Source of the DNA: Patescibacteria group bacterium
Lineage (GTDB): Bacteria; Patescibacteriota; Microgenomatia; UBA8517
Direction of reading: 5' to 3'
Assembly (NCBI GenBank): GCA_035291665.1
Contig: DATDRP010000003.1
Span: forward strand, 20,549-84,548
DNA length: 64,000 nt
Part shown: positions 37,679 through 53,297 of the stretch, one piece after another
How the letters are laid out: the number at the start of each line of letters is the position of its first letter
How positions within the stretch are numbered: position 1 is the first letter of the stretch
Notes under the pieces: model-generated
What the model saw: the letters and a program-made list of their open reading frames with translations, nothing else
Told to the model about the DNA's origin: nothing
Database searches by the model: none
Position numbers and translations under genes: made by a program

Positions 37679-40567
37679 ATGGCAATAACAGTCGTCCAAA
37701 ACCTGACACCAATTACAGAAGCAGACAGCACCACCGGATGGGTTGCCAGTCAGGGTACAACCGCAGCCGATACAGGCGTATACAGGGAAGCAACAGCCTC
37801 CATCGCTACAGAAATCCGTACTGCAGGAATGCAATATTTAATGTTTACAAGTACTACAACATGGAATCTGAGTAGCACTCATATCTACGCATGGTTAAAC
37901 TATCTTTTCGCAGCCGATTTGCAAAATAGAGCAACCGGAGGAATCAGAATCCGGGTTTCGACGACGTCCAGCGTAAATACCAACTACGGAGAATGGTATG
38001 TCGGAGGTTCGGATACCTATGGTGGAAGTTGGCGCTGTTTTGCACAAGACACATCGGCTGGTTTTAATGCAACATCCGGCACTCCACCAACTCTCTCTTC
38101 AATTGTAGGTGTAGGCTTTTCCTTTAATATTTTGAATACAGGTAAGGCTGTCGAGTCAACATTCGTCGACGCGATCCGCTATGGGGACGGTGTAACGGTT
38201 TATGCAGATGATACTGCAACTTATACAATGCAAAATATTTATGACGCCGTGGAAGCAAATACCAACGGTGCGGCTGCCGGAATAATCAGAAAAGAAGGAG
38301 GAGTCTACCTTGTTCAAGGGAAACTGCGTTTCGGAGATGCGTCAGGTACCAACTCCTTCTATTTTTCAGATACTAACCAAATTCTCGTATTTGAAGACGC
38401 AAACGTTTCGGCTTCACATTATGAAATTCTGGTTCAGGGAAACTCTACCGGAAACACTAGATTCCAACTGGGATCAGTGACTGGCAGCGGAACTTCTATG
38501 GTCGGATCGGAAGGTTTCGTCATTAAATCCGCAAATACATCACTACCCTTTGCTTTTAATGCAACCGATAACGATATTCAGCAATTTAAAATGTACGGAA
38601 GCACACTAGTAAATGCGGGTACTGTCAATCTCGGTAGTACTTCAACCGCGCTTGGAAAATCCGGATCGACGATACATCTTGTTGACAATAACTTTACAAA
38701 TCCGACACAGGTTGTCAGAAATATATCAAGTTCTGCTTCAGAAAATTATTCTGTCAGAAATAATATTGTATCTGCGAATAGCTCAAGGGCATCGCTTAAT
38801 ATATATGACGGAGTTACAACGACATCCGGCCAATGGACAATTACCGAAGGTAAAGGATTTGAAGACTCTGCAACGGCTGCAACTGTTACCGTTTCCGGTG
38901 AACCATTTCCTAATACGACTGCAAATAAACCATATGTTTCAGTATTGGATAGCGCTTCGGCAATATGGAATCTAAACGATGTGAGTGACAGCGCTGGAGG
39001 AAGAATTAGTGTTACCGACCAAACGGAAATAGCTTTTGATGGAAATTCAAATGGACAAGTTAATGAACAATACACTGTTACATGGAAAACCCAAACACCG
39101 GAAGGTACTGCTGTATCAACATCCAGGGTGAAAATAGTTGCAAGCGACAATGGTTCCGGAAGCCCTGCACTCGAAAACGAAGGATCGAGTAATGGCACTG
39201 GAGATGCAACTACTACATATTTACGTGCAAGATTTGTTCCAAGCGGCGCATCATCATTAACCACTACTACTCATGTCCCGGCTGCATTCAAAAGCTATAA
39301 ATACGGGAAGCTTCCCTTCTACACATCAGCTACAATTAATCAACCTGTTTCTGTTACCGCTACACATACTCCGGATCTTTATCAAGTAGAAACAACTGCT
39401 GCAACTGCTGTCTCAGCAGGAGAATCCGGAACTGCAGTAAGCATTTTGGAAGCTTCAACAAATGAACATTCATTAATTAAATTTGTCAATGGAGCAGGCG
39501 GAACTTTATCCAATGATGATACTATCACTGCATCAGGAGCTTCTCCTGCAACAGGACAAGTCGTAGGGAAAATTATTGAGGGCGATAGTGCTGCTGGAAC
39601 AATTCTTCTTGATAACCGAAACGGATCAACTTACGATAACGGGGAAACTTTAAGCAACGGTTCGGGCTGGACCGCTAACTATACAAACAGCTCCGAACAA
39701 AGGTTCCACTGGATTGTCGACGCCGGATTAAGTCAATCACGATCAGCTCAGACACTTTATGACTATATAATGGCTAAACTTGATGAAGCCACAGCAGATA
39801 CTTCACCTACCATTGACAAACTGATAATCGATGGAAGGGCAGAATTTGGTACTCCTTACCAGGGTGTATCAACAAGTCCTAATAAATTTAAGACTGTTAG
39901 GAATGTTTCTTTGACTCGCGGATGGGCGATCGCGAATTTAAACAACTTAAGCTTAATTACACAGTTCACTGACAATGCTGGAACCGCTTTCACTCCAGCC
40001 GCGACTGTTAACCTAACAGTCACAATAAAAAATCAGGCTGGTACTAACCTTGCGGGTGTTGAAGTAGCAATTTTCCAGGACAACGCAGCAAGAACCGTAG
40101 TTCTTGCTTCCACTCCCACTGATGAAGATGGTCAGGTGACAACTACTGTTGTTTCAGGACTTGGAGCTATCATCATCCGTGCCCGCCAAAGCACCGAAAT
40201 TGCCACTTTTCTAACATCTCAAGCATTCACCTCAGAGCTTGTAACAACAGTTGAATCAAACCATAATTTTCAAACTGGTGATCCGGTTGTTTACAGCAAG
40301 GATGGCGGCAGCGCAACTATTGGTTTAACGGAAGGAACAACCTATTATGTCCGTGAAGATACTGCCAACACATTGTATCTTTATGATACTGCTGCTCACG
40401 CAGTCGCAGGTGGTGGCACCGGATTGAAGGATCTGACAACAAATGGTGCTGAAACACACCAACTAAACCCGGTTAGGTATGTTGCCGGAAGTGCAACAGG
40501 AACTGTCGGTTCAACTGACTTCTCTTCTCAAATCACGTTAGTAACGGATAATATTGCGACGGGGTAA
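37679..40567 (+). CDS. Large (962 aa) S/T/G-rich hypothetical protein, member of a local 3-gene paralog family; no signal peptide
   Basis: No N-terminal hydrophobic segment. Shares with 41041..43479 and 44215..47055 the segments '...QTLYDYIMAKLDEA...' / 'LLSQIYEYLKYVTRGG' / 'LTDIYAYLQYYLRDGQ' and a beta-rich low-complexity composition. Confidence 0.45.
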   Translation: MAITVVQNLTPITEADSTTGWVASQGTTAADTGVYREATASIATEIRTAGMQYLMFTSTTTWNLSSTHIYAWLNYLFAADLQNRATGGIRIRVSTTSSVNTNYGEWYVGGSDTYGGSWRCFAQDTSAGFNATSGTPPTLSSIVGVGFSFNILNTGKAVESTFVDAIRYGDGVTVYADDTATYTMQNIYDAVEANTNGAAAGIIRKEGGVYLVQGKLRFGDASGTNSFYFSDTNQILVFEDANVSASHYEILVQGNSTGNTRFQLGSVTGSGTSMVGSEGFVIKSANTSLPFAFNATDNDIQQFKMYGSTLVNAGTVNLGSTSTALGKSGSTIHLVDNNFTNPTQVVRNISSSASENYSVRNNIVSANSSRASLNIYDGVTTTSGQWTITEGKGFEDSATAATVTVSGEPFPNTTANKPYVSVLDSASAIWNLNDVSDSAGGRISVTDQTEIAFDGNSNGQVNEQYTVTWKTQTPEGTAVSTSRVKIVASDNGSGSPALENEGSSNGTGDATTTYLRARFVPSGASSLTTTTHVPAAFKSYKYGKLPFYTSATINQPVSVTATHTPDLYQVETTAATAVSAGESGTAVSILEASTNEHSLIKFVNGAGGTLSNDDTITASGASPATGQVVGKIIEGDSAAGTILLDNRNGSTYDNGETLSNGSGWTANYTNSSEQRFHWIVDAGLSQSRSAQTLYDYIMAKLDEATADTSPTIDKLIIDGRAEFGTPYQGVSTSPNKFKTVRNVSLTRGWAIANLNNLSLITQFTDNAGTAFTPAATVNLTVTIKNQAGTNLAGVEVAIFQDNAARTVVLASTPTDEDGQVTTTVVSGLGAIIIRARQSTEIATFLTSQAFTSELVTTVESNHNFQTGDPVVYSKDGGSATIGLTEGTTYYVREDTANTLYLYDTAAHAVAGGGTGLKDLTTNGAETHQLNPVRYVAGSATGTVGSTDFSSQITLVTDNIATG

Positions 40568-40576
40568 ATATGAATC

Positions 40577-40987
40577 ATGAATTATGAATTAAGAAGTATG
40601 AAGAAAGAATTAAAGAAAATAAAAAATTTTACGGATTTGAATGTTTGGAAAGAAGCCCACAAACTTGTACTTACCGTGTATAAAATAACTAAGAAATTTC
40701 CTAAAGATGAACAATTCGGCTTGATAAACCAATTAAGACGTGCAGTTGTTTCAATAACATCTAATATTTCAGAAGGATTTAGCAGATATTCTTATAAAGA
40801 AAAGTCCCAATTTTACTTCATGGCACTTGGATCCCTAACGGAAGTTCAGAATCAATTAATAATAGCTAAAGACTTAAAGTACATTACCAGCAATGAATAT
40901 TATCAACTAGAAGAGTTGACTGTTGTTGTAAGTAAATTACTAAACGGTCTTATCAAAGTATCTAAAACTAAAATTCATGATTCGTGA
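40577..40987 (+). CDS. Four-helix-bundle protein (23S rRNA intervening-sequence protein / Avd-like family), second copy
   Basis: 136 aa. 'SITSNISEGFSRYSYKEKSQFYFMALGSLTEVQNQLIIAKDLKYIT' is the family signature. The palindromic motif GAATCATGAATT occurs at both flanks (40571-40582 and, reverse-complemented, 40971-40982). Confidence 0.7.
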   Translation: MNYELRSMKKELKKIKNFTDLNVWKEAHKLVLTVYKITKKFPKDEQFGLINQLRRAVVSITSNISEGFSRYSYKEKSQFYFMALGSLTEVQNQLIIAKDLKYITSNEYYQLEELTVVVSKLLNGLIKVSKTKIHDS

Positions 40988-41040
40988 TTTATTGATGTTT
41001 AATACCATGATTCATAATTCTTGATTCGTGATTCAAATAT

Positions 41041-43479
41041 ATGAGTAGTGTAATTCTCACCAATTGGACAGTTTTCTATTCGGATGATACCGGAGCCGGA
41101 AATGGATATAAACAAATCCGCTGGACGGGTGCTGGTGCACCTGAAACAAATACTAACACAGCGAATGAACTTTATTCAGCGGTTGCCGACCTCTTTTCCG
41201 TCCCAGCTCAAAATAATGCAAACGACACTGTCCCGATGCAGGCAGTAACACCAACCGTTTATAATATCGGATCATTCGACGCAGGTGATCTTGAACCTTG
41301 GTTTATCGATCCTGTCAGCATCCGTCATTTAACCGGAGGGTCACTTGAGTCTGTAAATTGGACCAGGGATTTGACTGCACGAACTGGTTCAAGAGGAATT
41401 GTAAAAATTCCCCGCTCAGGATCCAACATTGTTTCTGGTGATGTCGGAACGACAATTACCAATGACACCGATGGCGATACCGGAACATTACTGTATGTTG
41501 AAACAAGCTATTTGTGGATCAGGCCAACAAATAACTTGGCGGGTAATGATTGGGATTCAACAGGCACTACAACAATTACCTGTAATACCCATAGTGATTC
41601 CCAAACCGGTGCAAGCACAAATGGCGAGCGTCTTTGGTCAAATATTTACACACTTGGTACTATTGCAGCAAATACCAGAATTTATATCTACCAAAATTTT
41701 TCACCTATCACAAACTTCTGGGGCGACGGACATGTTGACAGGTTGTATTTGGTTAATGACGGATTTGATGCGGGTCTTATTGACGATGGTCTTCTTACAA
41801 TTTTTGCCAGACAGTATGGAATTCTTTACGATCACTATTCTATCGACGTGACTCTTGGCGGCCGCAACCCTGTCCCTTTGGCCACATCTGACGATACAAA
41901 CAATGATACAGGTTACCGGTCAATGACAATCACCGGCGCTACAGGTAATTATATTGAGGGAGAAGTAATTTCTAATGGTACCAATGCAAGCGGCATTGTT
42001 ACTTTAGAAACGGGAGATCCCACTACCACCCTATACTATTATCTGGTCGGTGATCTGACTACTGATTTTTCAACCTCTCAAACCATAACCGGAGCTACCT
42101 CCAGTGTAACCGGAACCTCAGGGACATTTGCAAATAATGGTCCCACAGCCTTATCGGGTATAACTATTACCTTTGGCCAAACTCAGGAAGACATCGGCGT
42201 CGGTGGCAACCAACCTTATGATGTCTCAATAAATTGCGGCGGCTACCTACTAAGTCAAATTTACGAATATTTAAAATATGTCACCCGGGGAGGAAATATC
42301 AGTGATATCGATTCCGGGGGGCAAACAGTTACGGGACAACGCTATATTACTGCAGGCGACGTCAGACTCTCCTATGACAGTCAAACAGTTAATTTTTTGG
42401 AGGGGGCGACCCTCACAGGTCAATCTAGCGGAGCAACCGGAATCATTACCGCCGACCACGACGCTGGAACTACAGGAACGCTTATTGTCCGTGATGTACG
42501 TGGAACTTTTCAAGACAATGAAAATATCCAAGACGATCAAGGTACTCCGGGTAACGCGGATATTATTGCAACGGGTGGAATCGAATCGACTTTGGTTCAA
42601 AAAGCTGCACCTTTCGGAACTTTTGCCGGAGGTGTATTTTTTGGTGCAAGAGGAGTTTGGATTCACAGTATGCACTCGGATGATGCCAATAACTATGAGC
42701 TCATCGACTCAAATGGAGTTGTCCGAAATCCCCCTCTAACAGTTTCAATATCTGTTCATGTTGAAAACTCTTCCGCTACCGCTATCGAAGGCGCACAAGT
42801 ATTTGTCCGGAAATCGGGTTATTACTATAGTTACACATCAGCAGCCGGAAACAATACTGCTGATACGGATTTTATTGTAACAGGAGCAGTCGACACCGAT
42901 CTGCCTCAAACCGGGTGGCTGCATATTTGGGATGCATCAGCAAATACCAAGCAAAACTATCGTTATCAAAGTTGGTCGACTTCAACCAACTCTACTTTTC
43001 AGCTGAACACTGCAGTATCCGGGTCCGCAACCAGTACTCACGCTGATCCAACCACCCACCTTGTTTCAACCTCAACAAACTTTTTAACTTCAGATATCGA
43101 AGAGGGCGACACGATAAGAAATACGACAACCGGTGCTTGGGCAATTGTCGATGAAATTGTTGATGCGGATAATATTACAACTTCCGCTTTATCAAGCGGT
43201 CAATGGACAAGCGGTGACGGGTTTTCTTTTCATACTCTGGCCATTAATTACGAAAACGCTGTAGACAAGGTGGACATCCCGATTTTTAACGGCCAAACAA
43301 ATGCGAGCGGCAACGTCTCATCAACTTATGGCGGTTCGCTACCAATTTCTGTTATCGTGAGAGTCAGATCAAACCAAGGATCACCAAAATATATTCCATA
43401 CAACACCTCAGGGACCGTTACAACGAACGGGTATTCGCTTAATGCCGTATTAACGCAGGATACGGTAGCAGGTACTTAA
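41041..43479 (+). CDS. Large (812 aa) S/T/G-rich hypothetical protein, paralog of 44215..47055
   Basis: 'AAPFGTFAGGVFFGARGVWIHSMHSDDANNYELIDSNGVVRNPPLTVSISV' vs 'QAPFGTLAGGVFFGAQAVWVEGMSSTDNNNIKFTDAGGTLRQPFTSITLSI' in the downstream gene. No signal peptide. Confidence 0.45.
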   Translation: MSSVILTNWTVFYSDDTGAGNGYKQIRWTGAGAPETNTNTANELYSAVADLFSVPAQNNANDTVPMQAVTPTVYNIGSFDAGDLEPWFIDPVSIRHLTGGSLESVNWTRDLTARTGSRGIVKIPRSGSNIVSGDVGTTITNDTDGDTGTLLYVETSYLWIRPTNNLAGNDWDSTGTTTITCNTHSDSQTGASTNGERLWSNIYTLGTIAANTRIYIYQNFSPITNFWGDGHVDRLYLVNDGFDAGLIDDGLLTIFARQYGILYDHYSIDVTLGGRNPVPLATSDDTNNDTGYRSMTITGATGNYIEGEVISNGTNASGIVTLETGDPTTTLYYYLVGDLTTDFSTSQTITGATSSVTGTSGTFANNGPTALSGITITFGQTQEDIGVGGNQPYDVSINCGGYLLSQIYEYLKYVTRGGNISDIDSGGQTVTGQRYITAGDVRLSYDSQTVNFLEGATLTGQSSGATGIITADHDAGTTGTLIVRDVRGTFQDNENIQDDQGTPGNADIIATGGIESTLVQKAAPFGTFAGGVFFGARGVWIHSMHSDDANNYELIDSNGVVRNPPLTVSISVHVENSSATAIEGAQVFVRKSGYYYSYTSAAGNNTADTDFIVTGAVDTDLPQTGWLHIWDASANTKQNYRYQSWSTSTNSTFQLNTAVSGSATSTHADPTTHLVSTSTNFLTSDIEEGDTIRNTTTGAWAIVDEIVDADNITTSALSSGQWTSGDGFSFHTLAINYENAVDKVDIPIFNGQTNASGNVSSTYGGSLPISVIVRVRSNQGSPKYIPYNTSGTVTTNGYSLNAVLTQDTVAGT

Positions 43480-43618
43480 ATATAAAAAATAAGTCAGCTC
43501 GAATTGGTAATGGGGATTACAAAAATAATCTCCAATAGGGTCTTGATTTTATACCGGCATATAGTTCATATTAAATATATGCATTTTGTAGACTGAGGCT
43601 ACTCGGAGTAAATGCCGA

Positions 43619-43999
43619 TTGTTCATGAAAATTAAAATTGTCAGATATCCATATTATGATCATAAGGTTGGCGAGATCGTAAATTTCGGTGAAGAAAAGA
43701 ACCGGTCACTTGTTTCATTCCAAAAAGCAGTTTGGGTTGATGATAAAGGCAATCCCCCTGTCGAGAAAGGCAGGAAGAAATTAGTAAACCAAGCAAAAAC
43801 ATTGTTATCGAAATCGTCCAATAAACCAAAAAAATTTCTTTCAAATAAACTATCCGAAAAGGTTCAGCAAAAGAAAAAAGAAATTCAAATTGAAGATGTT
43901 CAGAAACCTGTTGAATTAAAAACACAAAATTCTGAAGGGGCGAATTCTGAAGACGATAAGGCAGTTGAAAAGAAAAGTTTTTGGGATCGCTTGAAATAG
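43619..43999 (+). CDS. Lys-rich hypothetical protein
   Basis: 126-aa ORF, 'KKLVNQAKTLLSKSSNKPKKFLSNKLSEKVQQKKKE'. Ends 1 nt before the next ORF (43999 / 44001). Confidence 0.35.
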   Translation: MFMKIKIVRYPYYDHKVGEIVNFGEEKNRSLVSFQKAVWVDDKGNPPVEKGRKKLVNQAKTLLSKSSNKPKKFLSNKLSEKVQQKKKEIQIEDVQKPVELKTQNSEGANSEDDKAVEKKSFWDRLK

Positions 44000-44000
44000 A

Positions 44001-44204
44001 ATGAAAATTTTTAATCTGCATTCTAACGCGAAAAAAGAAGTAAAAAATTTAAAAAAAGTTTCTCATGAAGAATATGATCAATTGGGTAAACTAAAATCAA
44101 ATCAATACGTAGAATTTACGGTAATCGGCAAAAACAGGTCATGGATTGATTTCATGCCTTTGAAGGTTTTCAAGAAATTAAATCCTAATGTAATATTAAA
44201 ATAA
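44001..44204 (+). CDS. Small hypothetical protein
   Basis: 67-aa ORF tightly packed between 43619..43999 and 44215..47055. Co-orientation and spacing suggest co-transcription. Confidence 0.3.
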   Translation: MKIFNLHSNAKKEVKNLKKVSHEEYDQLGKLKSNQYVEFTVIGKNRSWIDFMPLKVFKKLNPNVILK

Positions 44205-44214
44205 CTAATTAAAC

Positions 44215-47055
44215 ATGGCTATCCAAAACGACTTTACGATTTATCCGGCAACAAAAACAATACGTCATACTTCAGGTACTGCCGTATACGACACGGTCGA
44301 TTTTTATACCTGGTTAATGGACACCTTTGACGAACCGGGATATCTAACATACGAAACACCGATCAGGTATAACACACCTACATCATTCACTATGATTAAC
44401 GGTTGGTTTTTGGATAATGGTGACGGCGATGGTGTTACAGTTGCATTGGGAAATATTCTTCAATATCTGACCGGCGGAGGTATTGATACGTCAGGGTATT
44501 CAACAGTAAATGATCCGATTTTAATGGTAGATATGGACGGAACAACGGACTTTGTATACTCCGATCTTGATAACACTGTTGTTGCAAATACCACAGAGGA
44601 TGTCGGACCTCTGCTTGCTTTTAAAAACGACTACCCGGCAGCAGGTAGGGCAAGAATTTGGGTGAGGGATACAAACACACATGGTGCAATTTCAGATAAT
44701 GACACCATTGCAGTTACCGGTGGGACAGGTGCTGGTGATGCTCTTGGTGCGTCAGCCAGCGGAGACGAAATCTATCACAACCTCTTTACAATTGCTTCAT
44801 TCCCGACTGATGTTAATCCCCAAGTTTATGTTTATCAACGTCACCCTGTAACGGCAGGAAGCTATAACGTTAGGGTTCGTATTGCCGAGTGGTCGGCTTT
44901 CACCAACTGGGATCGGGGTTCCATTGATGTACTTATTCCTGTACAGCTTGGTGGGGCTGCGATTGATGGTGGAAATATTTCAACATTTGTACGTCAAACC
45001 GGAGACACCTTTACTTATGTTACTTCTACTCTTACCTCTTCCGGTAGAACACCGATCGCTACGGAAACTTCAGCCGATGAGGTAAACATCACTAAAGGTG
45101 AGCACTATCTCCTCTATGACACTTCCAACACAGGTTCCTTCTCTGTTGACGATGTCATATCAAACCGTGACCTATCTGCAGGAATTCCGCCGGATTGGTA
45201 CGCCGAAGTTGTTGCCGTAGACGAATTTGCAAGCACGACCGAGGGTATGCTAACACTTCGGGGGTTAAGAGGGGTAATTGCAAATAATGATGCAATTTTT
45301 GTCAGTAATGTCCAGGAAGCTTTGGTAAACGGTAAAGTTGGTGATACCTATTTCACCTACACCGGAGGTACGGATCCAACAACACTTGATCAAGTCATGA
45401 CAGGAAGTTCATCAGGAGCCAAAAGGATTCTCCGGGGTGTTGACGCAACAGAAAATTATTTAGTCCTTCAAGATGATCCAACCATAACCGGCTCAAACCG
45501 TAATGCATACTACAAAGACTTTACAACCGGCGATACTGTTACAGGAGCGACCAATGGATCAGTTACCCCGGACGCTACTTCGGTAACCTTAATTTCCGGC
45601 TATAACGATATAACAGTTGCACATGTCAACGGAACTATAGTGGTCAACGGTTTTTCCGGAACATTCCTGCGCGGTGAAAGAGTCACCTGGACAGGTGGTG
45701 GACCGGCAATTGTGATTTATACAGATGGCTCCAGTACGATGACATTGGGAAATGTCGAGGACGAAACAGCCCTTACCACAAGCGGTTTAACAATTACAGG
45801 ACAACGATCCACTGCAACTTGCACTACTAATGGAACCGGAGGTATGACAGATAGCAATACCCAACAGTTCAACTTTACTCTCCAATCATTCGCCGCAAAC
45901 TATTCTGTCTTTATTCAAGGGGGTTCAATTTATAACGCCAGTAGTGAAGGAAGATCTCTTACCGATATCTATGCCTATTTGCAGTATTACCTTCGAGACG
46001 GTCAGGATATATCAAGCAGGGTGATTTACACTTCAGATGCTTCGAGTATATTAGAAGTCGCCGCAGAGGAATACGTCAAAGCTGACGTCGACTACTCTGC
46101 TACCAAGCAGGCTCCTTTCGGAACATTGGCTGGAGGAGTTTTCTTTGGAGCACAAGCAGTCTGGGTTGAAGGTATGAGTTCAACTGATAATAACAATATC
46201 AAGTTCACTGATGCGGGCGGAACTCTAAGACAACCTTTCACCTCCATCACCCTATCAATAACAAATACAAGAGAATTCGATAGAATCGCTGTTTATCCTA
46301 AGCATTTAACATTATCGCTTCCGAATAAAACTCAGTATACAAGTCACGCGACAACTAATGCTTTGAGTGACACAACATTCGACGCTCCCGATACGGTCAC
46401 TTTCCCCAACGACACTCCGACGTCCGGAACTTTTATTGTTGTTGATAATTCAGCCAGTGAGGAACACAGATACAGATATTCCGCTTTTGACAATCTCGGC
46501 GGTACAGGAACTAATGATGGAGAATTATTCCTTCCTTCCGATGCGTCACAGGGGGGTGCTGTTGCGGGTACAGCAACAGGTGGGTCAGATGGTCAAACTC
46601 TCTTTGATTCAGCAGCAAGTTTTGGCGGCACTGAGGATGTCGTGGTTGGAGACATAATAAGAAGAACCAATAACGAAGGCGGATGGGCATATGTTGTGAC
46701 TGTTAATTCAACAACGCAATTGACTACTACACTATTCAACGCAGGAATTACTGCCGGATGGGATGAAACAGCAACAGCCGACGCTTATGAAATTAATGAA
46801 TTAGTAGTTGCTTATACTGGTTCCGATACGTTTTTCATCCCCTATCTGGATACAATTGAAGATGTCGGAGATGACGGCTCACCCGGTTCTGTAACTCAGT
46901 CTCTTACTTATGTTTCTGACCGAAACGTTGTGGTTGAAGTAAGAAACGTCCAAAATACAACCCAAATCCAGCCGTTTAAAACTACAGGTACTATTGGATC
47001 AAACGGTTTAACCCAGTCTGTCATCCGAAATGAAGATACAGTCTACGGAACATAA
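44215..47055 (+). CDS. Large (946 aa) S/T/G-rich hypothetical protein, paralog of 41041..43479
   Basis: See paralog evidence above. N-terminus 'MAIQNDFTIYPATKTIRHTSGTAVYDTVDFYTWLMDTFDE' is similar in pattern to the 41041 gene N-terminus. No signal peptide. Confidence 0.45.
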   Translation: MAIQNDFTIYPATKTIRHTSGTAVYDTVDFYTWLMDTFDEPGYLTYETPIRYNTPTSFTMINGWFLDNGDGDGVTVALGNILQYLTGGGIDTSGYSTVNDPILMVDMDGTTDFVYSDLDNTVVANTTEDVGPLLAFKNDYPAAGRARIWVRDTNTHGAISDNDTIAVTGGTGAGDALGASASGDEIYHNLFTIASFPTDVNPQVYVYQRHPVTAGSYNVRVRIAEWSAFTNWDRGSIDVLIPVQLGGAAIDGGNISTFVRQTGDTFTYVTSTLTSSGRTPIATETSADEVNITKGEHYLLYDTSNTGSFSVDDVISNRDLSAGIPPDWYAEVVAVDEFASTTEGMLTLRGLRGVIANNDAIFVSNVQEALVNGKVGDTYFTYTGGTDPTTLDQVMTGSSSGAKRILRGVDATENYLVLQDDPTITGSNRNAYYKDFTTGDTVTGATNGSVTPDATSVTLISGYNDITVAHVNGTIVVNGFSGTFLRGERVTWTGGGPAIVIYTDGSSTMTLGNVEDETALTTSGLTITGQRSTATCTTNGTGGMTDSNTQQFNFTLQSFAANYSVFIQGGSIYNASSEGRSLTDIYAYLQYYLRDGQDISSRVIYTSDASSILEVAAEEYVKADVDYSATKQAPFGTLAGGVFFGAQAVWVEGMSSTDNNNIKFTDAGGTLRQPFTSITLSITNTREFDRIAVYPKHLTLSLPNKTQYTSHATTNALSDTTFDAPDTVTFPNDTPTSGTFIVVDNSASEEHRYRYSAFDNLGGTGTNDGELFLPSDASQGGAVAGTATGGSDGQTLFDSAASFGGTEDVVVGDIIRRTNNEGGWAYVVTVNSTTQLTTTLFNAGITAGWDETATADAYEINELVVAYTGSDTFFIPYLDTIEDVGDDGSPGSVTQSLTYVSDRNVVVEVRNVQNTTQIQPFKTTGTIGSNGLTQSVIRNEDTVYGT

Positions 47056-47077
47056 ACTTATTTAATAATTGGGAGTT

Positions 47078-47584
47078 TTAATTCTTACTTCTTAACTCAT
47101 CTTTTTCCAGTTTTGCTCTTATTGTAAGCATTTCAAGCCCTTTTGCGGTTTCCCCTAAGACATAAAGAAGCTGTCCGTAATTGTAATATGCGGCTTTATA
47201 TCTGGGATAAATGTTAATTGCCCGCCGGTAGCACCTTTTTGCATACTCATGATTACCCATTGATGTATAAACATTTCCCAAATTGTTATAAATTACGGCA
47301 CTATAAGGCTTTATACTCAGCGCTTTTTCAAAAATATCCTCTGCTTCTTTCAGAAATCCTACATTTTTAAGCGCGACTCCCAAATTACAGAATGCCCGGA
47401 AGAAATTTGGATCGAGCCGGATCGCATCTTTGTAGCTATTTATTGCAGAGGGTAAATTGCCGTTTTTTAACAAGGAATTCCCCATCTGGTAATAAATTTT
47501 GGCTTGCTTGCGTTTCATAATTAGATGAAAACCAAGTGCTCTTAACCCTCGGTTGTTTATTATATATAATCTATTATATGGCAC
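47078..47584 (-). CDS. TPR-repeat protein
   Basis: 168 aa. 'YYQMGNSLLKNGNLPSAINSYKDAIRLDPNFFRAFCNLGVALKNVGFLKEAEDIFEKALSIKPYSAVIYNNLGNVYTSMGNHEYAKRCYRRAINIYPRYKAAYYNYGQL' gives 3-4 TPR units. The true start may be the internal Met at 47518. Confidence 0.55.
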   Translation of the reverse strand: MPYNRLYIINNRGLRALGFHLIMKRKQAKIYYQMGNSLLKNGNLPSAINSYKDAIRLDPNFFRAFCNLGVALKNVGFLKEAEDIFEKALSIKPYSAVIYNNLGNVYTSMGNHEYAKRCYRRAINIYPRYKAAYYNYGQLLYVLGETAKGLEMLTIRAKLEKDELRSKN

Positions 47585-48921
47585 TTAGAGTGTATTGGTA
47601 TGAGAACCCGAGAATAATTGAGATTCCGCTTCCGGCAACAGAAATTACTATTCAGGACTTGACTGATCAGATTAAAGATCTTGAAGACGAACCTGCAAAT
47701 CTTGCCTTCCCGATTTTGGTAAAAACCTTCGGTAAGCAGCCGTTGGGAGCAGGTGTTTATGTAGGTATCACAGCTGAACTGCAAAATGCCAAAGTGTCTT
47801 TTGCAGCCAGAGATGGAACCGATATCCCACCGGAGGTGCTTTGTACAATCTCCGGTGGAAATTTGGTTGCTGTCGATGAAAATGGCGTTCCTATGAACCC
47901 AATACACCCGACTGCGTATACTCAAGTTGTTCTTGCCCAGTCCTCCTCGGCAACAATTGCCACACCGCCGTCGGACTACAGTTTGCTGTATCTTGTGGAG
48001 TCACTGCGGGGAAACCACGCATCGGTTGGGAACATTTGGTACTGGGACCCGGTTAGCGGGTCTGATACCAATGACGGGACCACGCCATCAAACGCAGTGC
48101 AAACCTTCGCTAAGGTTCAATCACTTTCTGATTTGGCAAACGGGGTTAATGATATCGTTTTCGCGCTCGTTACCGACCCATCCGGTATTACAACGGTTAC
48201 AAATGAAAATATTAATATCACCTCTTCTACACCAGGCATGAAACTCCGGGGGCCGGGGTATGCCTTTCAATTCAAACCGGCAACGGCGGGTAGCGATGTG
48301 ATTACAATATCTGCCGACAATGTTGAAGTCAGCGGCTTTTATATCCAGCCAAAATCTCCGGGATCCGATAACGGTATCACGGTAACCGGTGATAGTGCTC
48401 TTATTAAAGATATCTGGGTTGATACGGCAACCGCCAATGGAATTGATATCAGCACTTCCTCAAGAACCAAAATTGAAAAGTGCGTCATCGAAAACTGCAC
48501 CGGAAACGGAGTTAATCTTGGCGCGTCAACGATCAAATCCAATATCACAACCTGTATCATCTCCGGTTGTGTCAACGGGGTTGATCTAGGAGGGTCGGGG
48601 TTAACCGACAATATCCTGGAAAATAATGTTATTTATAATAATTCCGGTTATGGGATTGATATCGGTGCCGGAGTTTTGCGGACGGGTGTTCGGATGCATC
48701 ACACGTTTTCTAATAACACTTCGGGCAGTTATTACGACGAACCGCCCACTGCAGCAAAATACACTTTTGTCGAAGAAGGTGTTGCAACCGGAGATATAAA
48801 CGCTATTGTAGATGCAGTTTGGGATGAGGTTATCTCACCTTCCGCCCATACCGGTGCCCAATCAGCGGGTAAAACTCTTCGCGATGCAAAAACAAAAGCC
48901 ACTCTGGCATCACTTAAGTAA
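47578..48921 (+). CDS. Right-handed beta-helix (pectin-lyase fold, tailspike-like) protein
   Basis: Repeats 'GNGVNLGASTIKSNITTCIISGCVNGVDLGGSGLTDNILENNVIYNNSGYGIDIGAG' are typical parallel beta-helix rungs. No signal peptide. The start is placed at the ATG at 47578, because the track's GTG at 47536 overlaps the divergent TPR gene. Confidence 0.45.
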   Translation: MALRVYWYENPRIIEIPLPATEITIQDLTDQIKDLEDEPANLAFPILVKTFGKQPLGAGVYVGITAELQNAKVSFAARDGTDIPPEVLCTISGGNLVAVDENGVPMNPIHPTAYTQVVLAQSSSATIATPPSDYSLLYLVESLRGNHASVGNIWYWDPVSGSDTNDGTTPSNAVQTFAKVQSLSDLANGVNDIVFALVTDPSGITTVTNENINITSSTPGMKLRGPGYAFQFKPATAGSDVITISADNVEVSGFYIQPKSPGSDNGITVTGDSALIKDIWVDTATANGIDISTSSRTKIEKCVIENCTGNGVNLGASTIKSNITTCIISGCVNGVDLGGSGLTDNILENNVIYNNSGYGIDIGAGVLRTGVRMHHTFSNNTSGSYYDEPPTAAKYTFVEEGVATGDINAIVDAVWDEVISPSAHTGAQSAGKTLRDAKTKATLASLK

Positions 48922-48934
48922 TTTTGTAAATTAG

Positions 48935-49235
48935 AGATAAGAAAAAAAATGGGATGTGGGAAGTGGGTTCTAAGTAATAGGTTGTAAGCAGTAAGTTGTA
49001 GGAGGTAGGTTGTAGGAGATAGGTTATAGGAAAAGAGAAATGAGTTGTGGGAAGAGAAACTGGGAATGAGATGTGAGTTGTGAGTAGTGGGAAATACAGA
49101 TAAGAAATTAGGAATATAGGAATTAAGAAATTTAGAATAAAGAGAATAGAGAAATAGGAAAAATAATTGCGGAAGGGAGATTGATAATTGTAAAATAAAT
49201 CCTATATTAATGGTGTTGTGAAGACTAACGAAGTA
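48935..49235. repeat. Composite repeat island C (modules X and Y)
   Basis: Module X 'gggatgtgggaagtgggttctaagtaataggttgtaagcagtaagttgtagg' and module Y 'gtgggaaatacagataagaaattaggaatataggaattaagaaatttagaataaagagaatagag'. Only ~5 C in ~240 nt on the + strand. Confidence 0.75.
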
Positions 49236-49427
49236 TTACTCAGCTTTTGGATCGGTCGGCTCTTCTTTGACTGCTTTTTCGAATTCACTTTTAGCCTGTT
49301 TTATGCCTTTTGTGGTTTCACCGGCTTTCTTGCCAAGACCTCTGAAAATTGCTCCACCGAAGAATAAAAGTACTACTAAAACGATAATGATAATTTCGGT
49401 CGTTCCGATATTTTGAAGAAATCCCAT
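49236..49427 (-). CDS. tatA: Twin-arginine translocase subunit TatA/E family
   Basis: 63 aa. 'MGFLQNIGTTEIIIIVLVVLLFFGGAIFRGLGKKAGETTKGIKQAKSEF' gives N-terminal TM + FG hinge + amphipathic helix. Flanked on both sides by GT-rich repeat islands. Confidence 0.7.
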   Translation of the reverse strand: MGFLQNIGTTEIIIIVLVVLLFFGGAIFRGLGKKAGETTKGIKQAKSEFEKAVKEEPTDPKAE

Positions 49428-49439
49428 ATTAAAAAATAT

Positions 49440-49900
49440 ATTAATACTAAGATTCCCGAATGTCCAGTAGCAGTTTTACCCCATATTAGTAAAGGGTGAC
49501 AGAAAATTAGATTTAAGTTTAAGTTGTATGTTGTAGGTGATAGGAAGTGAGTAATGAGAAGTGAGATGTGAGAAATAAGAGTTAAGAGGTAGGTTGTAGG
49601 TGGTGGGATGTGGGATGTGAGTGGTGGGAAATACAAATAAGAATTTAGGAATACAGGAATTAAGAGAAAAGAAATGGGATGTTGGAAGTGGGTTTTAAGT
49701 AATAGGTTGTAAGTAGTAAGTTGTGGGAAAAAGGTTGTAGGTTATAGGTTATAGGAGCGAAGTTAGAAATATAGAAATTTAGTATTTTGTTTTAAGTTTT
49801 CAATTGAAGAACATTGGCCATTTAGCATTCGTATCTCGTCTCACGTATCACGTATTACATCGCTTGGTTTGAAAAGTACCGAACTAACAAGATCTCATTG
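49440..49900. repeat. Composite repeat island D (modules Y then X, then 'CGTATCTCGTCTCACGTATCACGTATTAC' module)
   Basis: Y: 'gtgggaaatacaaataagaatttaggaatacaggaattaagag'. X: 'gggatgttggaagtgggttttaagtaataggttgtaagtagtaagttgtggg'. These are the same modules as island C in swapped order. The tail module is shared with island F. Confidence 0.75.
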
Positions 49901-49934: not shown

Positions 49935-50606
49935 ATGCCTTCAGCTTTATACAATAGAAAATACGTACAGAATGGCTACTATTATATTTATCACAAGTCC
50001 TCGGGAGGAAAAGAATTATTCCGCGATGAAGATGACTATTTGAATTTTGTTAAAACTTTTCAATATTATTTGACATCACCCACCGGTAAACCTCTAAGTC
50101 AAACAAAAAAAGAGGATTTAACCCAAACACCTTCACATATCCAGCTCTCTTTCAGGATACTACTGTTTGTCCTTCTACCCAAAAGTATACACATATTAAT
50201 CCGACAAAATACTCCCCCTCAGACCAACAATAATATAACTAATCTGATGCGAAGACTTTCTATCACTTATTCGATGTACTATAAAAACAGATACGATACT
50301 CATGAAAGCTTATTTGATGGGAAGTATAAAAATATTAATATCCCCGACAACGAAAAACTTCTTTATTTGTCCAAACATATTCACAGAATGCCCCTTGACC
50401 TTTATCCGCAGGAAACACTTGAGAAATACATTTACTCCAGTTATCCCTTTTATATTGGTGTGGCCGGCAAACCCGATTGGTTAGATACAAAAATAATATC
50501 CGATATACTCTTACGGTCAAGTCCGGGTTTGGGATACAAAAATTTTGTTGAAAATTCACACCTTGGCAAAGACTTGGATAAGAAATATATCGTGAATGGG
50601 GGTTAA
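49935..50606 (+). CDS. IS200/IS605-like Y1 (HuH) transposase / RAYT-like protein with degenerate HuH motif
   Basis: 'NGYYYIYHKSSGGKELFRDEDDYLNFVKTFQYYL' corresponds to the N-terminal block (YHVxxRGNxRxxIFxDDxDxxxFL). 'KSIHILI' sits at the HuH position, where the first His is replaced. 'ITNLMRRLSITYSMYYKNRY...SLFDGKYK' corresponds to the LxxLxxxYT...WQxRY(K) block with the candidate catalytic Tyr. Confidence 0.5.
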   Translation: MPSALYNRKYVQNGYYYIYHKSSGGKELFRDEDDYLNFVKTFQYYLTSPTGKPLSQTKKEDLTQTPSHIQLSFRILLFVLLPKSIHILIRQNTPPQTNNNITNLMRRLSITYSMYYKNRYDTHESLFDGKYKNINIPDNEKLLYLSKHIHRMPLDLYPQETLEKYIYSSYPFYIGVAGKPDWLDTKIISDILLRSSPGLGYKNFVENSHLGKDLDKKYIVNGG

Positions 50607-50692: not shown

Positions 50693-50938
50693 ATGTTTTC
50701 CAACATCGGCGTCACTGAAGTTATTATCATCATCTTGGTTCTGACTGTGATTCTCGGCAGTAAGAAAATGGGAGAACTTGCCAGCAATGCCGGACGGGCT
50801 GGCGCTGAGCTAAAAAAAGTCAAAAAGGAATATGAAGCTGCTATGAAAGAATTGGACAAGGAAATCAACGTTGATGATGAAAAAAAAGAAAAATCAGAAA
50901 AGAAAGATTCTTCAGAAAAAAAAGGAGGTGAGCTTTAA
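50693..50938 (+). CDS. Tat translocase subunit, TatB-like (TatA/B family with extended charged tail)
   Basis: 'MFSNIGVTEVIIIILVLTVILGSKKMGELASNAGRAGAELKK' has the TatB-like 'LG' hinge instead of FG. The long K/E-rich C-terminal tail is TatB-like. It overlaps the next tatA by 1 nt (TAATG). Confidence 0.55.
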   Translation: MFSNIGVTEVIIIILVLTVILGSKKMGELASNAGRAGAELKKVKKEYEAAMKELDKEINVDDEKKEKSEKKDSSEKKGGEL

Positions 50939-51078
50939 TGGCTAATTTTGGAGTACCGGAACTTCTCATTATTTCATTAATACTTGTGTTCATGTTCGGA
51001 AGCAGAAAAATTCCGGAATTCATTAAAGGTATGGGTCAGGGAATCAAAGAATACCGAAAAGCTGTAAGCCGTAAGTAA
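50938..51078 (+). CDS. tatA: TatA family protein (46 aa; absent from ORF track because <60 aa)
   Basis: ATG at 50938 overlaps the upstream stop (TAATG). Translation is MANFGVPELLIISLILVFMFGSRKIPEFIKGMGQGIKEYRKAVSRK, with stop TAA at 51076-51078. Canonical TatA TM-FG-amphipathic helix. Confidence 0.7.
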   Translation: MANFGVPELLIISLILVFMFGSRKIPEFIKGMGQGIKEYRKAVSRK

Positions 51079-51100
51079 ACCTTGGATTTCAACGTAAATT

Positions 51101-51835
51101 ATGCCCAAAACGCAGGAGCTTCAACTTGAAGAGTCCATAAATAAATATTATCCGTTTCTGATGGAAATCAGGAAAAGACTTTTATTCCTGGCAACAATCT
51201 TTGTGGTTTCCGCAGTCGGGGGATTTTTTTATTACGAACGGATTGTCAGAATAATTGTTGATTTTTTGTCGCTTGACGGCATCAACATTGTTTTCACCTC
51301 GCCTTTCCAGTACTTAAATCTTGCCGTTGATGTTGCCTTCCTGGTCGCAGTAATTGTTATCTTTCCGGTAATCATCTATCAGATAATAACTTTCCTACGT
51401 CCCGCTCTCAAAAAAAGTGAGTACAATTTAATGATCTCCTTAATCCCCATTGGTTTTTTCCTATTTATATTCGGCTTCATCTACGGAGTTGTCATGATGC
51501 GCTATGTTATGCAACTATTTTTCGAAAAATCAGTCGAGCTTAATATCGGCAACATGCTGGATATAAGCTCGCTACTTTCCAAAATAGTATCAACTTCAAC
51601 TTTTATGGGTTTAGCTTTTGAATTTCCAATCGTTGTCACGGCTTTGGTAAAACTTAAAGTTATAAAACTTAAAGTCGTTTCCCAACAAAGAGTTTACGCC
51701 TGGTTTGCATCCCTGATCTTCGCGGCAATGCTGCCGCCTACGGATCTGCTTTCTTTGGCACTTCTGACTATGCCTCTTGTAATCCTATTCGAATTTACGC
51801 TATTATTTAACAGATTATTTTCTTTGAGAAAATAA
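51101..51835 (+). CDS. tatC: Twin-arginine translocase subunit TatC
   Basis: 244 aa, six TM helices. 'GLAFEFPIVVTALVKLKVI' and 'AAMLPPTDLLSL' match conserved TatC segments (FE-PV, P-TD). Confidence 0.8.
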   Translation: MPKTQELQLEESINKYYPFLMEIRKRLLFLATIFVVSAVGGFFYYERIVRIIVDFLSLDGINIVFTSPFQYLNLAVDVAFLVAVIVIFPVIIYQIITFLRPALKKSEYNLMISLIPIGFFLFIFGFIYGVVMMRYVMQLFFEKSVELNIGNMLDISSLLSKIVSTSTFMGLAFEFPIVVTALVKLKVIKLKVVSQQRVYAWFASLIFAAMLPPTDLLSLALLTMPLVILFEFTLLFNRLFSLRK

Positions 51836-51912
51836 TCATATTATAAGTCCGGTTAGATTTGGGCACTTGCCAAGCCCGATCGCACCTAACCATAGAGAGG
51901 GAGTGATAGTAA

Positions 51913-52059
51913 ATGTTAAGAGGTATTGGAACTACAGAACTATTAATCATTGCTGTTGTACTTTTGGTGTTGTTCGGAGGTAAGAAGTTGCCTGAACTTG
52001 GAAAAGGAATCGGAGACGCTATCCGAGAGTTCAGAAATTCAATGAAGAATAAGGAATAA
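51913..52059 (+). CDS. tatA: TatA family protein (48 aa; <60 aa, not in ORF track)
   Basis: SD GGGAG lies 9 nt upstream of ATG 51913. Translation is MLRGIGTTELLIIAVVLLVLFGGKKLPELGKGIGDAIREFRNSMKNKE, with stop at 52057-52059. Confidence 0.7.
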   Translation: MLRGIGTTELLIIAVVLLVLFGGKKLPELGKGIGDAIREFRNSMKNKE

Positions 52060-52110: not shown

Positions 52111-52509
52111 ATGGGATTGATATCGCCGTTATTTTCGCTTATTGCACCGTTTATTATTTGGCCGGTTGAGTATCTGTTGCCTTTTCCTTATTTAGTCGAA
52201 GAAGTCTACAAGTCAATACTCGTACTTCTCGTGGTTAATGACAATCTTTCAAAGAAGGATCAAGCACTTCTTGTTGTTGTTAACGGAGTATTATTTTCAA
52301 TTTCGGAAACATTCTTCTATTTTATTAATATCTATAAAGTCGGTTCTCTGACAACAGTTTTGGAGCGACTTATTTCTACCACCCCGTTACACATTGTTAC
52401 GATTTTAATTATTTTCTATTTTGCAAAGAAAAATAAGAAATTGTTGCCAATTGGTTTTTTTGTTTCGGTAATCCTTCATTATTTATTTAATTTGATGATT
52501 GGAAAATAA
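52111..52509 (+). CDS. Small polytopic membrane protein, possibly CPBP/CAAX-type intramembrane protease-like
   Basis: 132 aa with 4 TM helices. 'VEEVYKS' (EExxxK), 'ILHYLFN' (HxxxN). Short for the family, so a weak call. Confidence 0.25.
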   Translation: MGLISPLFSLIAPFIIWPVEYLLPFPYLVEEVYKSILVLLVVNDNLSKKDQALLVVVNGVLFSISETFFYFINIYKVGSLTTVLERLISTTPLHIVTILIIFYFAKKNKKLLPIGFFVSVILHYLFNLMIGK

Positions 52510-52564
52510 ACGGGTAAGATAGTTGCGCATATAATTAATATTGTCCTGTATAATCGCTACAAAA

Positions 52565-52730
52565 TATAATCTCTGATGTGAGAGTTGAGAGATGAGATGT
52601 GGGAAGTGAGAAGTGAGTTGTAAGCAGTAGGTTGTAGGTAATAGGTTGTGGGAGGTAGGAAATTGGTATATTCCTAATATCTTAATATCGAAGCACATAA
52701 TATCTCTCCTATTCGTGATCAGTTCGTGAT
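52565..52730. repeat. Composite repeat island E (GT-rich module + 33-nt 3' motif + TTCGTGAT pair)
   Basis: 'gatgtgagagttgagagatgagatgtgggaagtgagaagtgagttgtaagcagtaggttgtaggtaataggttgtgggaggtagg', then 'cctaatatcttaatatcgaagcacataatatct' (52673-52705), then 'attcgtgatcagttcgtgattc'. Confidence 0.75.
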
Positions 52731-53297
52731 TCAAAGAATCCATTGAAGAAAAACTGTCGCAAACTCATCCTCAGAAAAATCAATCAGTGTTTTTGCTCCC
52801 ATTTGTTTGTAAAAATTCAAAGACAGGTTGGTCGTATCGCTGACGTAAGAATATATTGCTTTCATGCTATTTTCTCTTGAAAATTTGATGGCCTTCTTGA
52901 AAAGTCTCGATCCGTACCCCTTATCCCGATATTCCGGCCGGATATACATATACATCAACTCATAAGAAGGTTTAATCATGTGGTAATCCTCTGAAACCCA
53001 TTTTTCTTCTTTAAAAGTTTTTTCCCAAAAATTCATTTTCGCATCCGAAAAACCAAAAACACAAAAACCAACGTAGTTGTCGCCGTTTTCATCTTCTTGA
53101 AATATTACATGTACTTTGGAGTTTGAATCTTTGTCGCGAAGGTCAAATTCTTTGGAAATTCTTTTTACAAATTTTTTATAAAAAGTATCACCGCCTACAA
53201 TCTCTGAAATTTGCATTATTTCGTCACGGACCATACCCAAGTATATTTCAAATGGGATTTTGTAGTAAAGATTACTTTGTAGGTCAAAATAGAGCAT
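52731..53297 (-). CDS. GNAT family N-acetyltransferase
   Basis: 188 aa. 'YMYIRPEYRDKGYGSRLFKKAIKFSRENSMKAIYSYV' is acetyl-CoA-binding motif A (R/Q-x-x-G-x-G/A). Confidence 0.65.
   Translation of the reverse strand: MLYFDLQSNLYYKIPFEIYLGMVRDEIMQISEIVGGDTFYKKFVKRISKEFDLRDKDSNSKVHVIFQEDENGDNYVGFCVFGFSDAKMNFWEKTFKEEKWVSEDYHMIKPSYELMYMYIRPEYRDKGYGSRLFKKAIKFSRENSMKAIYSYVSDTTNLSLNFYKQMGAKTLIDFSEDEFATVFLQWIL

Follow-up and report, generated by a model that had tools for sequence, protein, structure and literature searches.

A probable phage-derived receptor-binding module beside the Tat genes of Patescibacteria

The stretch of DNA analysed here (the window) is 64 kb of contig DATDRP010000003.1, from a Patescibacteria group bacterium, and is numbered from its own first base. 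We read its block 37679-48921 as a phage-derived receptor-binding module, domesticated in Patescibacteria beside the genes for twin-arginine translocation (Tat), with proposed Tat export of its products as a surface complex; we put the probability of this reading at about 0.55. Its descriptive part, i.e. a module of phage derivation that is fixed in place, linked to Tat and not a prophage, is very likely; Tat-dependent display of the module at the cell surface is a tentative proposal. The module would consist of the small gene c2, the fibre-like genes g1, g2 and g3, and the tailspike-like gene bh (Table 1), captured in a Patescibacteria chromosome and maintained as a cellular locus directly upstream of a tatA/tatC-PrsW-SH3 envelope operon, to which it would be translationally coupled in some lineages. 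New here is a phage receptor-binding module that stands by itself and is joined to a Tat operon across a broad radiation of bacteria; a full-text literature search found no description of the locus, which we write as G-bh-Tat, G being the family of g2 and g3.

Phage counterparts of the module

Relatives of these genes were found in 157 stretches of IMG/VR, and the counts for viral loci rest on 77 loci compared by BLAST and clustering. A G gene is followed by a bh-like gene in 53 of the 77, and 34 have a g1-like gene as well. The order of the module in the viral loci is c2, (c3), g1-like, G, bh (cluster c3 is described below). Judged from the flanking genes, contigs L011, L067, L069, L036 and L015 are real phages. 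In L011, whose G protein is 50% identical to g3, the module comes directly after genes for a baseplate hub/tail lysozyme (1.6e-15), a baseplate wedge (1.6e-21) and a tail protein, the usual place for fibre and spike genes in a phage. In L067 a portal gene (1.9e-19) accompanies a weak match to a terminase; for L069, L036 and L015 the flanking genes encode, respectively, a major head protein (3e-23), a tail protein (5e-52), and minor tail and tail spike proteins. This recurrence of the gene order beside baseplate, tail, portal and major-head genes marks the module as a homolog of a phage tail-fibre/tailspike module, and the likeness to tail fibres and tailspikes that had been proposed from the window's sequence is thereby upheld. 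The viral loci range in GC from 31 to 68%, so their hosts are probably diverse.

The proteins follow a proximal/distal pattern. Members of the g1-like family are alike over residues 1-320 and variable beyond, bh-like proteins share an N-terminal part of ~130 aa and run from 172 to 1506 aa in length, and G proteins have common N- and C-terminal parts around a variable middle. A structural-block context, the tailspike architecture of bh, and conserved proximal with variable distal parts are testable marks of the phage receptor-binding class, and the module has them. Known fibre and tailspike modules (CBA120 TSP1-4, Det7 gp208, phi29 gp12) are likewise placed after baseplate or tail genes in phages, with conserved N-termini and a variable rest, a right-handed beta-helix (here in bh), no signal peptides, and an adjacent small accessory gene. 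Unlike them, our module resembles no characterised fibre or spike and no PHROG by sequence or profile, and it stands alone in a cellular chromosome, with no tail. Cultured phages gave no match in a tblastn search of INPHARED with g1, g3 and two phage homologs, and coverage by PHROGs is poor, with only two of 53 phage G homologs matching any.

Two further clusters go with the module in phage contigs and are absent from the window. Proteins of c3 (L003, L013, L015, L020, L022, L055, L060 and others) are ~120-165 aa long with a C-terminal ...LW....I.LYDR..K motif, and are encoded just upstream of the g1-like gene. Those of c5 (L019, L029, L030, L052, L069), some with collagen-repeat regions, end in a conserved W(R/Q)I.R....WADG...FD.VWDDR..L.Y domain.

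An earlier reading of the window, made from the sequence only, had taken g1, g2 and g3 for three paralogs sharing conserved blocks such as APFGTxAGGVFFGA. Paralogy holds for g2 and g3 (BLASTP 9e-15 over their N-terminal and 1e-23 over their C-terminal parts), and the block occurs in these two alone, at residue 523 of g2 (APFGTFAGGVFFGA) and residue 633 of g3. The g1 protein belongs to a separate family, with no BLASTP similarity to g2 or g3. In hhalign (probability 92%, E 5e-7) the two families share no more than ~50 aligned positions at the end of a C-terminal stretch, and the sequence pattern of this stretch suggests a prealbumin-like beta-sandwich. The composition described as rich in serine, threonine and glycine is so for threonine (14-15% in g1-g3 against a background of 9.7%) and glycine (10-11% against 7.6%), and serine is not unusual in g3 (7.7%).

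In g1 the conserved N-terminal domain of ~320 aa is followed by a variable middle and by the C-terminal stretch common with g2/g3. Its residues 1-320 are 54% identical to P0126, a protein encoded on a phage-like contig of 38 kb, and homologs of g1 occur in 49 viral loci, the best in L022 (35% over 789 aa, E 4e-100). Homologs of g2 were found in 75 viral and 70 genome loci (best viral match L046, 40% over 838 aa). It clusters with L086_818, and the sister group consists of the proteins at the same upstream position in L003, L008-L010 and L085; its phage counterparts precede c2 and g3 in related phage contigs. Full-length homologs of g3, the archetype of the G family, number more than 200 (38-70% identity), those with an organism name being nearly all from 'Patescibacteria group bacterium', and a profile search with the family returned 2187 cluster representatives (clusters at 50% identity) at E<=1e-3. 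The AlphaFold2 (AF2) model of g3 (pLDDT 86.9, pTM 0.78) is all-beta and multidomain; judging by its secondary structure and by the alignments, we read it as a ~290-aa N-terminal domain, small beta domains, a conserved core with APFGTLAGGVFFGA, and at the C-terminus a beta-sandwich-like region that has an insert. No match to g3 was found in the PDB by fold or profile, and BFVD gave only weak, low-TM matches to large uncharacterised phage structural proteins. The proteins g1, g2, g3 and c2 have no match in Pfam, PHROGs, NCBIfam or PADLOC, nor in the PDB by sequence and profile.

The c2 family is present in 24 loci by clustering, and the window copy matches 16 viral and 15 genome loci. In phage contigs its genes precede the large fibre genes, directly or with c3 between, and c2 may be an assembly factor for the fibre proteins. 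Only g1, g2, c2, g3 and bh among the open reading frames (ORFs) of the window have homologs in viral loci, with o126 marginally added.

The beta-helix protein predicted at the end of the block was confirmed. It matches the right-handed beta-helix family (PF13229, 2e-10), and its AF2 model (pLDDT 81.6) has an N-terminal domain (1-120), a right-handed beta-helix (~150-400) and C-terminal helices; the N-terminal domain of ~120 aa is common to the phage homologs. At E ~1e-5, Foldseek against the PDB pairs bh with GH136 lacto-N-biosidases and Pel9A, and also with the tailspikes Det7 gp208, CBA120 TSP2 and phi29 gp12 and with the fibres of phage 7-7-1; pectate and rhamnogalacturonan lyases and alginate epimerases are also among its best folds. 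The structural comparison thus returned, for bh, tailspikes and beta-helix enzymes alike, and for g3 no PDB neighbour at all. The ORF-finder start of bh is a GTG at 47536; its orthologs begin MAIRV or MALxF, which favours the start at 47578. There are 425 homologs of bh, the best 120 of which have 50-71% identity, are mostly 431-456 aa long, and span Woese-, Roizman-, Ames- and Beckwithbacteria and WWE3. Many polar residues of the helix are invariant (D192, E250, E305, D344, N345, R368, R372), a pattern compatible with a conserved binding or active site.

Two side observations concern these proteins. (i) Some giant proteins of the Candidate Phyla Radiation (CPR), 2,250-4,263 aa in length, embed the N-terminal domain of the G family, usually far from their own N-terminus; examples are L001:1-7423 (3020 aa), P0268 (4263 aa), P0339, P0362 and P0363. 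(ii) Glycosyltransferases accompany Thr-rich fibre genes in CPR loci and phage contigs alike. On the CPR side there is a TPR-GT41 protein (O-GlcNAc-transferase-like) at 33911-36043 of the window, besides the TPR protein of Table 1; on the phage side, phrog_2170/3408 glycosyltransferases and a nucleotide-sugar epimerase lie directly upstream of the module (L067:6888-8072, L009:4184-6126). This company hints at cytoplasmic glycosylation of the fibres.

Position beside Tat across the Candidate Phyla Radiation

A scan of GTDB species representatives gave 63 loci, and gene order was counted over 41 non-redundant CPR loci. Lineages among the 63 are Pace-, Ames-, Davies-, Collier-, Shapiro-, Roizman-, Beckwith-, Gottesman-, Levyi- and Saccharibacteria, and a few loci are on contigs binned with archaea, Planctomycetes, Desulfarculales or Bdellovibrio-like metagenome-assembled genomes. 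TatC is encoded within 10 kb in 37 of the 63, and bh too in 35 of those 37; none of the 77 viral loci has TatA or TatC. The order G(...G), bh, tatA(n)/tatC on one strand, with PrsW and the SH3 protein next, is found in 39 of the 41 non-redundant loci. The stop of bh and the start of tatC overlap by 4 nt (ATGA) in a complete Beckwithbacteria genome (CP011210.1) and are separated by 6 and 8 nt in two further lineages. A reverse test, starting from TatC in 25 metagenome loci with at least 4.5 kb upstream, recovered bh in 18 and G in 16. The module is probably co-transcribed with the Tat operon; scans for promoters and terminators over 36-53.7 kb of the window gave no excess over shuffled expectation.

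In most of the about 40 CPR genomes sharing the site beside tatA/tatC, bh is full length and 41-69% identical. By median identity to the window, bh (46%; full length in most loci) diverges about as slowly as TatC (41%), and the G proteins (34%, often with partial coverage) are more variable. The module is kept under purifying selection in many CPR lineages. Neighbour-joining (NJ) trees divide the Tat-linked G genes among at least five clades, with viral clades in between, and the window's own G clade, which has L003 inside it, is nested among the low-GC contigs L010-L012. The NJ tree of bh has three or four chromosomal clades, one with about two-thirds of the chromosomal sequences. The G components apparently exchange with phage alleles.

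TatA is present in four copies in the window and in 1-7 across related CPR loci (mode 3; 3-7 in most), with a single TatC; in 0.6-1 Mb genomes without the customary cofactor-bearing cargo of Tat, such multiplied TatA is unusual. A Tat system of TatA and TatC occurs in Microgenomatia, Paceibacteria and Saccharimonadia, and the organism has been reported as predicted Gram-positive (PMC9166423). Downstream, the SH3_3 protein has a signal peptide, a Cys-containing N-terminal domain, segments resembling transmembrane (TM) helices and two C-terminal SH3_3 domains; its orthologs, in 28 genome loci, share the N-terminal Cys motif C..C.(V/I)GEFLYDD.Y.P.....C. Transposase-like genes (Y1_Tnp) occur in the same locus at varying positions (L001, L007, L086, L138, L140), between G genes elsewhere and in the Tat cluster here.

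Many records of CPR-type loci are titled 'uncultured Gammaproteobacteria' or 'Pseudomonadales' (L088, L093-L095, L097, L101, L104, L107, L108, L110 and others); since their gene content matches that of Patescibacteria loci, these titles appear to misstate the taxonomy. L088 and L001 are one and the same contig.

Export and competing explanations

The large proteins g1-g3 had been described as having neither a signal peptide nor a TM helix, and this stands; bh too has neither. Their maximal Kyte-Doolittle mean over 19 residues is at most 1.25, against 2.0-3.0 in nearby true signal or TM proteins, and within the first 40 residues of g1-g3 and bh the maximum is 0.4-1.2, against 2.6 in neighbouring secreted proteins. 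We considered start-codon misannotation hiding signal peptides and rejected it: N-termini are conserved from Met1 across the families and their phage homologs (for the g3 family in 41 aligned homologs), and bh orthologs all start MAL or MAI. The missing signal peptides are therefore real and the same in phage homologs, and orthologs in related genomes, which might have carried such signals, are without them too. By hydropathy the N-termini are not hydrophobic, and the C-termini (...IATG, ...VAGT, ...VYGT) lack LPXTG, i.e. no Sec or sorting signal was found.

We propose that G and bh fold and oligomerise in the cytoplasm like their phage homologs, which would explain the lack of Sec signals, and form a fibre-plus-spike complex that would cross the membrane, folded, via the adjacent Tat translocon. 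As no module protein has a twin-arginine (RR) signal, this passage would most plausibly be by piggy-back on a signal-bearing partner. Tat exports folded oligomers including signal-less partners ('hitchhiking'), and we know of no other non-lytic way out for cargo folded in the cytoplasm. A minimal TatAC translocase is encoded beside its substrate in B. subtilis (phoD-tatAd-tatCd); the CPR loci resemble that operon in having only TatA and TatC types and a large folded-protein gene upstream, co-oriented and in places overlapping tatC. They differ in that PhoD has a twin-arginine signal, while G and bh have none, and in that TatA is multiplied (1-7). Once outside, the complex could be an adhesin or a spike that depolymerises glycans, serving contact with other cells; the G proteins would be diversified by recurrent exchange with phage alleles. 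A novel surface system, the third option suggested from the sequence only, gains an unexpected possible route out of the cell from the tight linkage to Tat. In its fullest form, which we think unlikely, the proposal is of an organelle-like fibre-spike system in many CPR lineages, exported with no RR signal of its own via an expanded multi-TatA/TatC translocon of the same operon, held in the envelope with PrsW and SH3, and used by these episymbionts for binding or cutting the surfaces of other cells.

A large part of bacterial diversity belongs to the CPR, whose members are mostly thought to live attached to other cells; beyond type IV pili, few of the molecules behind this attachment are known. 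We describe a large family that is new to all family libraries tested, common to phages and CPR cells, and Tat-linked in the cells. Should G and bh be exposed at the surface, they would be strong candidates for structures of host contact, and Tat would have a use in organisms without its usual redox-enzyme cargo. Were the Tat-exported organelle real, it would explain why cofactor-poor CPR keep Tat, and these would be the first phage receptor-binding proteins repurposed as Tat-dependent surface appendages. Whether the proteins act at the surface or inside the cell, the locus links CPR phages to hosts, defines an operon, and adds a new family of baseplate-distal proteins of phages.

A number of observations weigh against domestication for Tat export. 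(i) No RR motif or hydrophobic N-terminus is present in g1, g2, g3, bh, c2, o126 or their orthologs; conserved neighbours are without a twin-arginine signal, and the module proteins have no CPR-specific N-terminal extension relative to the phage homologs. (ii) CPR TatC probably still requires canonical RR signals, as judged from two conserved glutamates: the position matching E. coli E15 is E in 33 of 37 sequences (D in 3, Q in 1) and that matching E103 is E in all 37, residues that we take to be signal-binding. With these glutamates kept and no RR signal on the module, export would need an RR-bearing partner. (iii) Neither bh nor G lies within 10 kb upstream in 7 of the 25 CPR TatC loci, so Tat does not depend on the module. 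(iv) The fold match of bh is generic (TM about 0.3), non-phage beta-helix enzymes matching equally well, and g3 has no informative structural neighbour. (v) The NJ trees are without support values, and the polyphyly of G could be partly artefactual. (vi) An ancient neutral insertion site could persist merely through deep conservation of gene order around CPR envelope genes. As to RR signals near the module, the orthologs of the SH3_3 protein have long signal peptides, with RR in 4 of 26 and a basic c-region residue in 15 of 26; the basic c-region resembles a Sec-avoidance feature. In the window, RR plus a hydrophobic N-terminus occurs only in a 198-aa ORF at 11018, an unrelated one with the look of a membrane anchor.

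Among the competing explanations, the one that survives best, although we hold it quite unlikely, is an intracellular anti-phage or phage-manipulating module, in which the fibre and spike homologs would enter virions or compete with the fibres of the virion baseplate, poisoning assembly or retargeting progeny, the Tat linkage being incidental. The absence of an export signal suits it, as do the conserved N-terminal (presumed docking) domains kept relative to phage homologs and the G proteins, which are highly variable and interleaved with phage clades as in an arms race; moreover, the nearest relatives of g3 (50-57% identity) are on low-GC phage-like contigs that may infect CPR. However, PADLOC has no match for g1, g2, g3, bh, c2 or IVP, and the conservation of bh, like that of TatC (46% vs 41%) and at a near-fixed ~431-453 aa in most loci, better fits a housekeeping role. 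The overlap or near-abutment of bh and tatC in several lineages would be left unexplained, and we know of no demonstration anywhere of a fibre-decoy defence. If the module does act inside the cell, it would be an undescribed way to interfere with phage tail assembly.

Two other explanations are improbable, to about the same degree. In the first, the block would supply the fibres of a tailocin, of a contractile injection system or of a particle like a gene transfer agent (GTA), with the other parts elsewhere in the genome and release by lysis, for which no signal is needed. Phage capture is well known to lead to domesticated tail particles, and in phages the module is attached to baseplate-bearing tails. 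R- and F-type pyocins and other tailocins, contractile injection systems and type VI secretion systems likewise consist of phage structural genes kept by a cell under purifying selection, with receptor-binding parts exchanged with phages; those retain sheath, tube and baseplate, whereas here there is only a fibre/spike module, linked to a protein-export operon. By Pfam, no sheath, tube, baseplate or lysis gene is present in the window or within 10 kb in L001, L005, L007, L085 and L086, and the tailocin-like remnant suggested from the sequence only has no support, given the same lack of sheath, tube and baseplate genes within 10 kb in Pfam-annotated loci. CPR genomes of 0.6-1 Mb also leave little room for a cluster of at least 15 genes, and we know of no report of tailocin-type clusters in CPR.

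In the second, the proteins would be cytoplasmic or membrane-associated glycan-modifying enzymes of envelope biogenesis, with bh a lyase, hydrolase or epimerase and G its carbohydrate-binding partners; the phage homologs would be derived, and the Tat adjacency would mean no more than an envelope neighbourhood. GH136, pectate and rhamnogalacturonan lyases and alginate epimerases among the best PDB folds of bh agree with this, as do the invariant polar residues in its helix and the neighbours, i.e. PrsW, the SH3_3 protein, GT41/TPR and an O-antigen-ligase-like gene. On the other side, the spread of the module through phage structural regions of 31-68% GC favours a phage origin, and the G proteins have no enzyme-like match of any kind. 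Known beta-helix glycanases act extracellularly, so that an export route would still be needed; for bh, this explanation shares ground with our main reading.

A decaying or cryptic prophage tail region without cellular function, which had been suggested as a degenerate prophage tail, is scarcely credible: although the module is phage in origin, has selfish-looking IVP and IS200-like genes interspersed and in a related form adjoins an integrase in L003, its ORFs of 447-962 aa are intact without exception, full-length orthologs occupy the same Tat-side site in dozens of genomes (about 40 in CPR) of many candidate phyla, bh diverges no faster than TatC, and no other phage gene is present. In particular, Pfam scans of the large ORFs of the 64-kb window found no terminase, portal, capsid, integrase or reverse transcriptase (RT), as the sequence-only reading had also stated for the first four; attachment (att) sites were not specifically searched.

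Gene map and other features of the window

Coordinates of the module, its neighbours and the repeat arrays are collected in Table 1. Past bh the gene order is tatA(-), IS200-like, tatA, tatA, tatC, tatA, PrsW-like, GNAT(-) and SH3_3 protein(-).

Table 1. Features of the block and its surroundings, in window coordinates
Feature	Position	Strand	Description	Matches and remarks
g1	37679..40567	+	962 aa, Thr/Gly-rich	phage g1-like family
IVP/Avd-like four-helix-bundle gene	40577..40987	+		PF05635 1.6e-38; phrog_3206 'Avd protein of DGR' 6e-16
g2	41041..43479	+	812 aa, g2/g3 (G) family	paralog of g3
o126	43619..43999	+	126 aa, Lys-rich	homologs in 9 genome loci and 1 viral locus
c2	44001..44204	+	67 aa	directly upstream of g3
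g3	44215..47055	+	946 aa, all-beta multidomain	archetype of G family
TPR protein	47078..47584	-	168 aa, between g3 and bh	TPR_1 2.4e-25
bh	47578..48921	+	447 aa from ATG	PF13229 2e-10; NosD 1e-7
TatA-family gene	49236..49427	-	63 aa	PF02416 3.9e-7
IS200/REP-associated tyrosine-transposase-like ORF	49935..50606	+	223 aa, inside Tat cluster	weak NCBIfam NF047646, 2e-3
tatA (81 aa), tatA (46 aa), tatC (244 aa), tatA (48 aa)	50693..52059	+		PF02416 1e-5, 5e-10, 2e-17
tatC	51101-51835	+	244 aa	PF00902 TatC 6.5e-40
PrsW-family intramembrane protease-like protein	52111..52509	+	132 aa	PF13367 5.7e-6; 27 related genome loci
GNAT acetyltransferase	52731..53297	-	188 aa	PF00583 6.7e-12; same position in L085, L086, L090
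SH3_3 envelope protein	53632..56478	-	948 aa	SH3_3 6.8e-17; last member of conserved CPR locus
Heptamer arrays	48926-49130, 49524-49785, 52562-52681, 53337-53452, 857-910, 17833-17930

The IVP/Avd-like gene between g1 and g2 has no homolog in viral loci. IVP genes recur within the G-bh-Tat locus at varying positions (three copies in L086; also L093, L094, L115, L119 and L120), and may be selfish or accessory elements favouring it. The gene prompted us to consider the block as a target of a diversity-generating retroelement (DGR), which was rejected: there is no repeat of the template/variable (TR/VR) type in 30-58 kb and no RT among the window ORFs scanned. DGR-diversified surface and tail proteins of CPR and phages do resemble the block in the Avd-like gene beside fibre-like proteins, and differ in that the window has neither RT nor a template/variable repeat pair.

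The TPR protein has no viral homologs; its gene, on the minus strand, lies between G and bh also in L085, L090 and L092, and after bh in L086, L140, L144 and L148. No family match was found for o126 in Pfam or NCBIfam. Upstream of g1 on the opposite strand, the gene at 36067-37620 had been called a secreted beta-helix protein: its N-terminus is indeed signal-peptide-like, and for the fold there are only weak Pfam matches (FIMAH, DUF5123). None of the related or viral loci has a homolog of it, and we therefore leave it out of the system.

Elsewhere the window is ordinary chromosome, with histidine kinases and two-component systems, a LamG giant protein, an O-antigen-ligase-like gene and GT41, and further with Rho, a sortase, an M23/LysM peptidase, MerR and tRNA-Ala. 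Two giant proteins are encoded near its start, one of 1647 aa with no Pfam match (594-5537) and one of 1590 aa with six LamG/concanavalin-like domains (6088-10860); homologs of the two are absent from the viral loci and from most related loci.

Tandem arrays of a purine-rich heptamer (RTRRGWW; e.g. GTAGGTT GTAGGAG GTGGGAA), 100-250 nt long and mostly intergenic, are scattered over the window. Arrays flank two small minus-strand genes, those for TatA (49236-49427) and the GNAT protein (52731-53297), and the array at 857-910 sits within the ORF of 1647 aa, where it reads as the reverse complement, AACCTAC.

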